64,000 bases of DNA, from positions 1,423 through 65,422 of the IMG/VR virus record IMGVR_UViG_3300031237_000002; one strand, written 5' to 3'. Shown piece by piece: positions 41,329 to 42,716 of the stretch. The first letter of the stretch is position 1. Every line of letters begins with the position of its first letter. The DNA is from a virus. The notes beneath the pieces were generated by a model that had not been told where the DNA came from, ran no database searches, and was given only the letters and a program-made list of their open reading frames with translations. Position numbers and translations under genes: made by a program.

Positions 41329-41441
41329 AGCCAGCCAATTCAAGAAACCCAATGAGGCAAAGCGAGCCATCCTGCACAAGAAACCCAGTTTTAAGAAGCG
41401 AGTCACTAAAGAAAAGTAACCCACCCCCTTTAAGCGAGCCA
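41329..41441 (+). ncRNA. TIGR-type dual-repeat guide RNA array, upstream part (3 units of 36 nt)
   Basis: Units start at 41329, 41365, 41401: AGYCA-9nt-AG(A/T)AACCCA-9nt-AGCG; a further AGCCA at 41437. Confidence 0.9.
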
Positions 41442-41446
41442 CCGCC

Positions 41447-42394
41447 ATGACAAATAAAATTGACATTAAAAAGCTTGTAGAAAAACATCAGAAACGCCTT
41501 TGCGCTTTGTCTGGTGAAACCCTCCCTGATGATTACAGCCTTGTAGATACCCATCGCAAGCAGCACAAGGCGCAAGGTGGCACCTACACGGAAGAGAACA
41601 CCATTGTCGCAACGCCGCGTGCGCACATGGCCGAACATGGAACATTGCGCGACCGGGAAGACTGGCTGGAGCAACTTAAATCCTTGATGGATGATCGCTC
41701 CCAAGTCATGAAACTTATTTTTAAAATCAACAACCAGCTTCTGGCTGGCGAACGCCGCACTGACCATCTTTCGGAAGACACCGAAGCCATGCTTAATGAA
41801 GCGCTGGTGTTGCCAGAGAAACGTCTTACCCGTATCGACAGTGCAATCACCAAGCACCTTAAGGCGCCAGACCGTAGCGTTCTGGTTGATTCCTTGATGG
41901 GCGTGCGTGGCGTCGGTCCTGTTACAGCGGCTGGCCTGCTGGTGTACATCGACCTTGAAAAAGCAGACAGCCCGTCAGCTTTGTGGAAGTATTGCGGCCT
42001 GCATTGTGCCTCACACCAGCGGTATGAGAAAGGCGTAGCAGGCGGCGGTAATAAAACTCTGCGCACCATCCTGTATAAATGGGCATTGTGCATGGAGAAA
42101 GACGTTAAGAATCCTTACCGTGTTGTTTACGAACAGGATAAAGCGCGTCGGGAAGTATCCGATAAGTTGGTGAAATCCTACAACACACAAGGAAAGCTGG
42201 TGGAAGTGGCATGGAAAGATACCAAGCCTTCCCACCGTCGTGGTGCTGCTATCCGCGTAGCAGAGAAACATTTCCTTGCTGACTTCTGGATGGTAGGCCG
42301 CGAGCTGTTGGGTCTGCCAACGCGTACCCTGTATGTAGAACAAATTTTAAATCACGACGGCATTATTAAACCTGCCGAACGCGGTTGGATTTAG
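41447..42394 (+). CDS. tasH: TasH-like protein: N-terminal HNH nuclease plus Nop/IS110-C-terminal-like RNA-binding domain
   Basis: HNH-like DTH36...GGTYTEEN51...H60MAEH64; coiled coil; GVRGVGPVTAAGLL, SALWKYCGL, GGGNKTLRTILY, H...AIRVAEKHFLADFW. No DEDD RuvC domain. Flanked by arrays. Confidence 0.85.
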   Translation: MTNKIDIKKLVEKHQKRLCALSGETLPDDYSLVDTHRKQHKAQGGTYTEENTIVATPRAHMAEHGTLRDREDWLEQLKSLMDDRSQVMKLIFKINNQLLAGERRTDHLSEDTEAMLNEALVLPEKRLTRIDSAITKHLKAPDRSVLVDSLMGVRGVGPVTAAGLLVYIDLEKADSPSALWKYCGLHCASHQRYEKGVAGGGNKTLRTILYKWALCMEKDVKNPYRVVYEQDKARREVSDKLVKSYNTQGKLVEVAWKDTKPSHRRGAAIRVAEKHFLADFWMVGRELLGLPTRTLYVEQILNHDGIIKPAERGWI

Positions 42395-42716
42395 CCATAA
42401 TCGCTGAGTAAACCATAAACAGTAAGCGAGTCATTGTTCATAAGAAACCCACTCAGAACAAGCGAGTCATTATTCATAAGAAACCCATTGCGGACAAGCG
42501 AGCCAAGATATTAAAGAAACCCATGATTAACTAGCGAGTCATCATACCGAAGCAACCCATAATGGCGAAGCGAGCCAACCCATCATAGAAACTCATTTCG
42601 TGAAAGCGAGCCATTGAAGAGAAGAAACCCAAGTCCATTAAGCGAGCCATTTCGTATAAGAAACCCAACTCCATTAAGCGAGCCACCTTCCATGAGAAAC
42701 CCAACAAGGACTAGCG
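42393..42716 (+). ncRNA. TIGR-type dual-repeat guide RNA array, downstream part (9 units of 36 nt)
   Basis: Exact 36-nt period from 42393 to 42681; alternating AGCGAGYCA and AGAAACCCA repeats with 9-nt variable spacers. Confidence 0.95.

Follow-up and report, generated by a model that had tools for sequence, protein, structure and literature searches.

The closest described counterpart of the locus reported here is the SpTIGR-TasH system of Salicola phage CGphi29 (Faure et al. 2025, PMC12045711; PMC13421893; PDB 9w03, 9w04, 21kl). Systems of the TIGR-TasH kind were published in 2025 and structurally solved in 2026, and are represented by an NCBIfam equivalog model; the published catalogue comprises 20,096 tas loci. 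Since the kind is already described, solved and included in NCBI models, a further locus adds an example and not a concept. Two more distant relatives help to delimit it. TaTIGR-TasR of Thermoproteota (PDB 9mty) shares with the phage protein the Nop domain and the coiled-coil dimer, and it uses 36-nt tigRNAs with two repeats whose tandem spacers target both strands, as is proposed below for the phage system; however, it has an N-terminal RuvC nuclease where an HNH domain is found here, its repeats are of the form UG...CCA, its spacers are full 9-nt spacers, and its processing needs a host factor. The IS110/IS621 recombinases (PDB 8wt6, 8wt9) have in common an RNA-binding, Nop-like C-terminal domain (PF02371), but they carry a DEDD recombinase domain, use a single bridge RNA without array, and perform transposition.

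Positions given below are those of the window, i.e. the whole stretch of 64,000 nucleotides that was analysed, unless the virus record is named. Window 41329-42716 is a TIGR-TasH locus of a soil phage, on which sequence, fold, family model and array anatomy agree. When compared with SpTIGR-TasH, the protein has the same succession of HNH, coiled coil and Nop domains (315 aa here against 309 aa, with about 56% identity), and the catalytic residues for DNA cleavage and for guide processing are common to both. The SpTIGR array, read from NC_020844, has an identical edge repeat (AGCGAGYCA) and a loop repeat AGACAACCA that differs at 2 of 9 bases from AGAAACCCA, the loop repeat found here; the 36-nt unit, the N8A spacers, the AG of box D and the CCA of box C are common to both. 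Both systems are phage-borne, although the host phages are unrelated. In SpTIGR the only array is downstream and has a promoter and a terminator of its own, whereas in the present locus the gene is flanked by arrays on either side (3 + 9 units), and the CGphi29 cassette is located between the genes for the major head protein and the head-tail adaptor, whereas the cassette studied here belongs to a replication module. We consider it very probable that this dual-repeat TIGR-TasH system is functional, and that it is an accessory cassette which an uncultivated tailed phage of ~55 kb carries among its replication genes. Array anatomy, homology, fold and conservation of catalytic residues were observed directly and are described in the following sections.

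Anatomy of the guide arrays

Exact copies of two repeat types were found at the locus, and were confined to the plus strand and to positions 41343-42703. For the edge repeat AGCGAGYCA there are 11 exact copies (41361-42685) spaced by multiples of 36 nt, against 1.0 expected in the 64-kb window, and for the loop repeat AGAAACCCA 8 exact copies offset by 18 nt from the edges (0.4 expected in the same window). Four other loop repeats are degenerate copies, namely AGTAACCCA, AGTAAACCA, AGCAACCCA and AGAAACTCA. TRF returned an array period of 36, and in-register parsing resulted in 12 guide units, 3 of which (U1-U3) are upstream and 9 (D1-D9) downstream of tasH. The earlier note on this DNA had described 12 units with a 36-nt period, two alternating repeats and arrays that surround a gene of 315 aa; the parsing bears out all three points, the exact copies of both repeats being far above expectation and the open reading frame lying between the two arrays (Table 1). 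This is the layout of dual-repeat TIGR loci, in which alternating repeats of 8-12 nt, separated by spacers of about 9 nt, make up 36-nt units beside the tas gene and in its orientation. Both repeat types open with AG (box D) and close with CCA or YCA (box C), as in SpTIGR, boxes that in TIGR systems of this type covary between edge and loop repeats.

Table 1. Coordinates in the window of the features of the TIGR-TasH locus and of its junctions with neighbouring sequences
Feature	Positions	Strand	Evidence
Hairpin with T-rich tail (41288-41309), downstream of the 75-aa gene, and overlapping promoter candidate	41288-41320	+	consensus scan
Upstream TIGR array, 3 units	41325-41441	+	register parsing and exact repeat matches
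tasH, 315 aa	41447-42394	+	ORF, phmmer, homologue alignment, AlphaFold, NCBIfam
Downstream TIGR array, 9 units	42389-42716	+	TRF, register parsing, exact repeat matches
AAGGA, only SD-like sequence for the polymerase	42706-42710	+	sequence reading
Family A DNA polymerase	42718-44712	+	PHROG 17 (E=1e-85), tblastn

Half edges were found at the ends of the arrays (41329-41333, 42393-42397 and 42713-42716). Upstream edges start at 41325, 41361, 41397 and 41433; the first of these positions holds the 5' half edge AGCCA (41329-41333), the other three hold full edges, and the last one stops 5 nt short of the tasH ATG. The first edge had initially been read as AGCCAGCCA at 41329-41337, which is 4 nt out of register, and was moved to the in-register 9-mer at 41325-41333. 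Downstream edges start at 42389 + 36 x i. The 5' half edge of this second array (42389-42397, of which 42393-42397 is repeat-like) overlaps the tasH stop codon, and a single nucleotide separates the terminal 3' half edge AGCG (42713-42716) from the ATG of the polymerase gene. A 5'-truncated edge is the typical start of a TIGR array (Faure et al., PMC12045711). The rho-independent terminator that usually follows a TIGR array was absent here according to the promoter/terminator scan.

The two variable spacers of 9 nt announced for each unit hold as spacer slots but not as variable sequence: the ninth base is an A in 19 of the 24 spacers, and the variable part is therefore 8 + 8 nt (N8A). Adjacent units share near-identical spacers in two cases, D2A/D3A and D7B/D8B (P=0.009 by shuffling, window 42425-42712), which suggests either a duplication of units or guides aimed at variant targets. 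Between D2B and D3B, 4 of 8 bases differ, and all four differences are synonymous if the spacers are read as Leu-Arg-Thr codons. The D2/D3 pattern might thus represent two guides directed against variants of one coding site, for which database scans gave no support. Spacers are also poorer in G + C than the phage that carries them, by 5-13 points in all five TasH loci compared (the window and the loci labelled L002, L003, L005 and L007), with 41% in spacers versus 51% in the phage for the window.

Rfam gave no match at the locus, megablast against GenBank phages gave none, and the same was true of PADLOC 2023, which is older than the TIGR-Tas family.

Homology, fold and predicted activity of TasH

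The encoded protein is composed of an HNH domain (residues ~1-66), a coiled coil (~72-138) and a Nop domain (~145-315). In phmmer searches against PDB chains, 21kl, 9w03, 9w04 and five more TasH entries were matched over residues 9-314 with E=7e-111, the next match being TasR 9mty (2e-14), and identity to the TasH of Salicola phage CGphi29 was 56.5% (tblastn). An AlphaFold model built on 45 homologues (mean pLDDT 92.5) shows two helices (residues 72-102 and 110-138) ahead of a Nop fold, that is, the coiled-coil dimerisation domain and C-terminal Nop domain of the Tas proteins. The model superposes on 9w04, a TasH-tigRNA-dsDNA complex, with a TM of 0.89 and an rmsd of 2.5 A on 314 columns; TasR 9mty comes next (TM 0.53, E=5e-9), then the IS110-family recombinases IS621/ISCro4 (E about 1e-4 to 1e-5 for IS110/IS621). 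The outcome is in line with the fold that the earlier note had anticipated. The NCBIfam model NF052498 (TIGR_Tas_endo) is exceeded with 103.5 bits for a cut-off of 100. The assignment to the TIGR-TasH type, proposed beforehand from the letters alone, is supported by homology, fold, family model and SpTIGR-like repeats, and the locus shows all the defining traits of dual-repeat TIGR-TasH that can be read from sequence. No Pfam HNH model matched TasH, so that the HNH assignment rests on homology to SpTasH, with whose catalytic histidines the N-terminal domain aligns; weak local fold matches of the N-terminus to the HNH domains of colicin and McrA were also recorded.

The only Pfam match of the protein is Transposase_20 (PF02371, the IS116/IS110/IS902 C-terminal domain; E=1.9e-7), and PHROGs label its family "transposase", from which the gene could be taken for a decayed IS110-family transposase flanked by satellite repeats without guide function. 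The tests of family membership refute this reading, to which we accord practically no chance: the IS110 model NF033542 reached 46.8 bits, far under its cut-off of 140, and did so on residues 65-233 only; the protein has no DEDD domain and its N-terminus is a TasH HNH domain; the ORF is intact and strongly conserved; and the repeats carry the box C/D motifs of the characterised TIGR array. The "transposase" label of Pfam and PHROGs is a legacy annotation of the TasH family. A C-terminal region of Nop/IS110 type without a DEDD domain had been noticed from the start, and stands: it corresponds to PF02371 and to the fold match with 9w04, neither a DEDD nor a RuvC domain being present at the N-terminus. 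As regards the extent of the family, 597 relatives were retrieved at E<=1e-10 in a metagenomic protein collection, only 3 of which are in species-representative genomes, all on MAG contigs; the closest relative in the collections searched has 78% identity.

Residue conservation was scored on an alignment of 121 homologues, wherein five HNH residues do not vary, namely D34, R37, N51, H60 and H64. The last two align with H54 and H58 of SpTasH, whose double mutant is nuclease-dead, as is H54A alone. Among the HNH residues proposed in the earlier note, N51, H60 and H64 are thereby upheld, while H36 has to be withdrawn, this position being an Asp in 102 of the 121 homologues (84%). For guide processing, Y296 (invariant) and H303 (117 of 121 homologues) align with Y289 and H296, which catalyse pre-tigRNA processing in SpTasH. 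Three other SpTasH positions at which alanine lowered processing differ here (K180, E292 and K293, corresponding to C187, Q299 and I300), and all three are variable across the family.

Guide processing, DNA binding and cleavage are predicted for this system by homology with SpTasH, the only TasH for which guide-dependent, PAM-independent cleavage of both strands has been shown. A plus-strand transcript would span both arrays and tasH, and a TasH dimer would bind edge and loop repeats at their AG (box D) and CCA (box C) motifs. Y296 and H303 would then cut the precursor inside each edge repeat, giving twelve 36-nt tigRNAs, the two 8-9-nt spacers of which may pair with opposite strands, on adjacent halves of a 16-18-bp site and without PAM; finally, the two HNH domains (H60, H64) would cut both strands. 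[quoted passage not shown] It can be deduced that a single target geometry fits both observations, with spacer B first and spacer A next to it in reverse complement, so that the 3' ends of the two spacers meet at the centre.

Targets of the 12 guides were searched in the whole 66.7-kb record using both geometries (spacer B followed by reverse-complemented spacer A, and reverse-complemented spacer A followed by spacer B) with gaps of 0-3; the further target searches given below used both geometries as well. The best self-match had 13/16 identical positions, equal to mispaired A/B controls; a phage genome devoid of matches above background is as expected of an active nuclease. Cross-targets between the window, the Salicola phage, L003, L005, L007 and 18 further loci, which include distant polymerase relatives and MAG contigs, were likewise at control level for the true guides. 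In IMG/VR, the 16-nt targets of D2 and D3 had 11 and 26 matches respectively, about the estimated chance number, a 16-mer being expected to match collections of this size by chance; the flanks of these matches are unrelated to one another, and no gene is common to both guides. As no target was found, the biological role rests on the general view of the literature that TIGR-Tas acts in inter-element conflict, a view itself unproven. The competing phages, mobile elements or host DNA named in the earlier note are putative targets, and the system would most likely serve in competition with other phages or mobile elements.

It could also be supposed that the TasH-tigRNA complex mainly binds promoters or origins of the host or of competitors and blocks transcription or replication, cleavage being slow or secondary. 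Cleavage by SpTasH is indeed slow in vitro (0.01 per min) and the nuclease-dead mutant H54A still represses GFP, so that binding could be the main activity in vivo; TasA and dead TasR also act as repressors, and the low G + C content of the spacers in each of the five loci fits AT-rich regulatory DNA. However, the invariance of the five HNH residues in the 121 homologues argues for selection on catalysis, and the scans revealed no target of any kind. We hold this primarily binding role to be improbable, and retain DNA cleavage as the predicted activity.

Genome context and the junction with the polymerase gene

The virus record is a soil-metagenome contig in IMG/VR, 66,677 bp long. Its positions 1-11405 and 55244-66677 (window ~1-9983 and 53822-64000) are copies of one another at only 83-89% identity; the genome unit is therefore ~55.2 kb, and the record looks like a wrap-around assembly joining two co-occurring strains, more than like a genuine terminal repeat. 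The TIGR locus falls in the single-copy part of the record. No tRNA was found in the phage. Minus-strand neighbours encode a primase and an SNF2 helicase, and on the plus strand two small genes are followed by the TIGR-tasH cassette, and this in turn by the genes of a family A DNA polymerase, a RuvC-like resolvase and an exonuclease. The two small genes lie directly upstream of the cassette and encode a 216-aa protein with a weak match to a nucleotidyltransferase PHROG (window 40396-41046) and a 75-aa hydrophobic protein (window 41055-41282); genes of similar size are found in their place in L003.

Best GenBank phage matches of the polymerase are 33% identical and come from Ralstonia phages (tblastn). 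Even the nearest relatives of the polymerase in IMG/VR are distant (<=35% identical) and are accompanied neither by a TIGR-tasH cassette nor by such arrays, and the cassette is therefore an accessory insertion in the lineage of the window phage.

The sole sigma-70-like candidate on the plus strand, CTGGCA-17-TATCAT (41292-41320), ends 4 nt before the upstream array and belongs to a class of sites whose count is not above shuffled expectation. From 41320 to 44870, the promoter/terminator scan detected no plus-strand terminator and no further promoter candidate. The AAGGA of the polymerase gene (Table 1) is part of D9, the last guide, where it falls in spacer B at 7 nt from the ATG. An in-frame stop codon at 42712-42714 makes 42718 the first possible start of the polymerase, and both L003 and distant relatives have kept its N-terminal sequence, MIHLDFE. 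Fusions of the arrays to tasH and to the polymerase gene also occur in L003, but not in SpTIGR, L005 or L007; the arrays of these three loci end in terminators or T-runs, which indicates that the polymerase fusion is lineage-specific.

The arrays might in addition act in cis, cutting or binding by TasH serving to separate or mask ribosome-binding sites and so to tie guide maturation to the translation of tasH and of the polymerase. Since the last upstream edge lies 5 nt before the tasH ATG and the only polymerase SD is inside a guide, processing could affect both translations, all the more as SpTasH itself processes its precursor inside edge repeats. The half edge abutting the polymerase ATG, the retention of the polymerase fusion in L003 despite a different spacer, and a tasH-polymerase interval free of terminator or promoter candidates are consistent with such a coupling, and Xu et al. 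have suggested that, where arrays are intragenic, the maturation of tigRNAs is linked to the translation of Tas. Nevertheless, the proposal comes purely from the anatomy of the locus, promoters of the phage may have been missed, and the arrays of SpTIGR, L005 and L007 have their own terminators or T-runs; we regard cis regulation as a doubtful complement to the guide function of the arrays. The fusion between array and polymerase start makes it simple to ask whether an essential gene is regulated by the processing of guides next to it.

A syntenic relative and spacer turnover

The nearest relative found for the locus is L003 (Logan contig SRR13838937_6037), with 78% identity for TasH and 74% for the polymerase. 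Its gene order is that of the window (SNF2 helicase, two small genes, array, tasH, array, polymerase), it has the same edge and loop repeats in 3 + 9 units, and half edges are fused in the same way to the tasH stop and the polymerase ATG. More generally, arrays of the same type adjoin tasH, often on both sides, in all TasH contigs examined (L003-L007, L045-L047 and the Salicola phage).

While repeats are 90% identical between the window and L003, 24 out of 24 spacers differ, homologous slots being 22% identical versus 26% by chance. Conserved repeats together with spacers at chance level are what marks a guide array. In the flanking genes, identity at third codon positions is still 45% between the two loci; as spacers have 22% identity against 45% at these silent sites, spacer turnover is the faster process, with the number of units kept, a comparison that concerns a single pair. 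It is conceivable, although in our opinion improbable, that the arrays renew every spacer in place, keeping exactly 3 + 9 units, and that processing by TasH ties polymerase translation to guide maturation; if true, this would point to a mode of spacer replacement that neither adds nor deletes units.

The window and L003 thus form a clean syntenic pair in which repeats, unit number and fusions are shared and spacers are wholly different, and the main interest of the locus resides in this pair with fully replaced spacers and in the operon fusion. It provides material for two open questions on TIGR-Tas systems, namely their natural targets and the renewal of spacers without adaptation genes. The TasH protein is furthermore a second, divergent orthologue used with the SpTasH edge repeat, and could help to define which bases of the loop repeat are read by the protein.

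Public runs were covered as assembled contigs only; none of the listed runs that contain the stretch is recorded as RNA, and one with an RNA-Seq library label holds only a small share of it. Short contigs identical or near-identical to tasH and the polymerase gene were present in wastewater, sludge and a second soil data set, all from other studies, so that the phage occurs beyond the sample from which it came.
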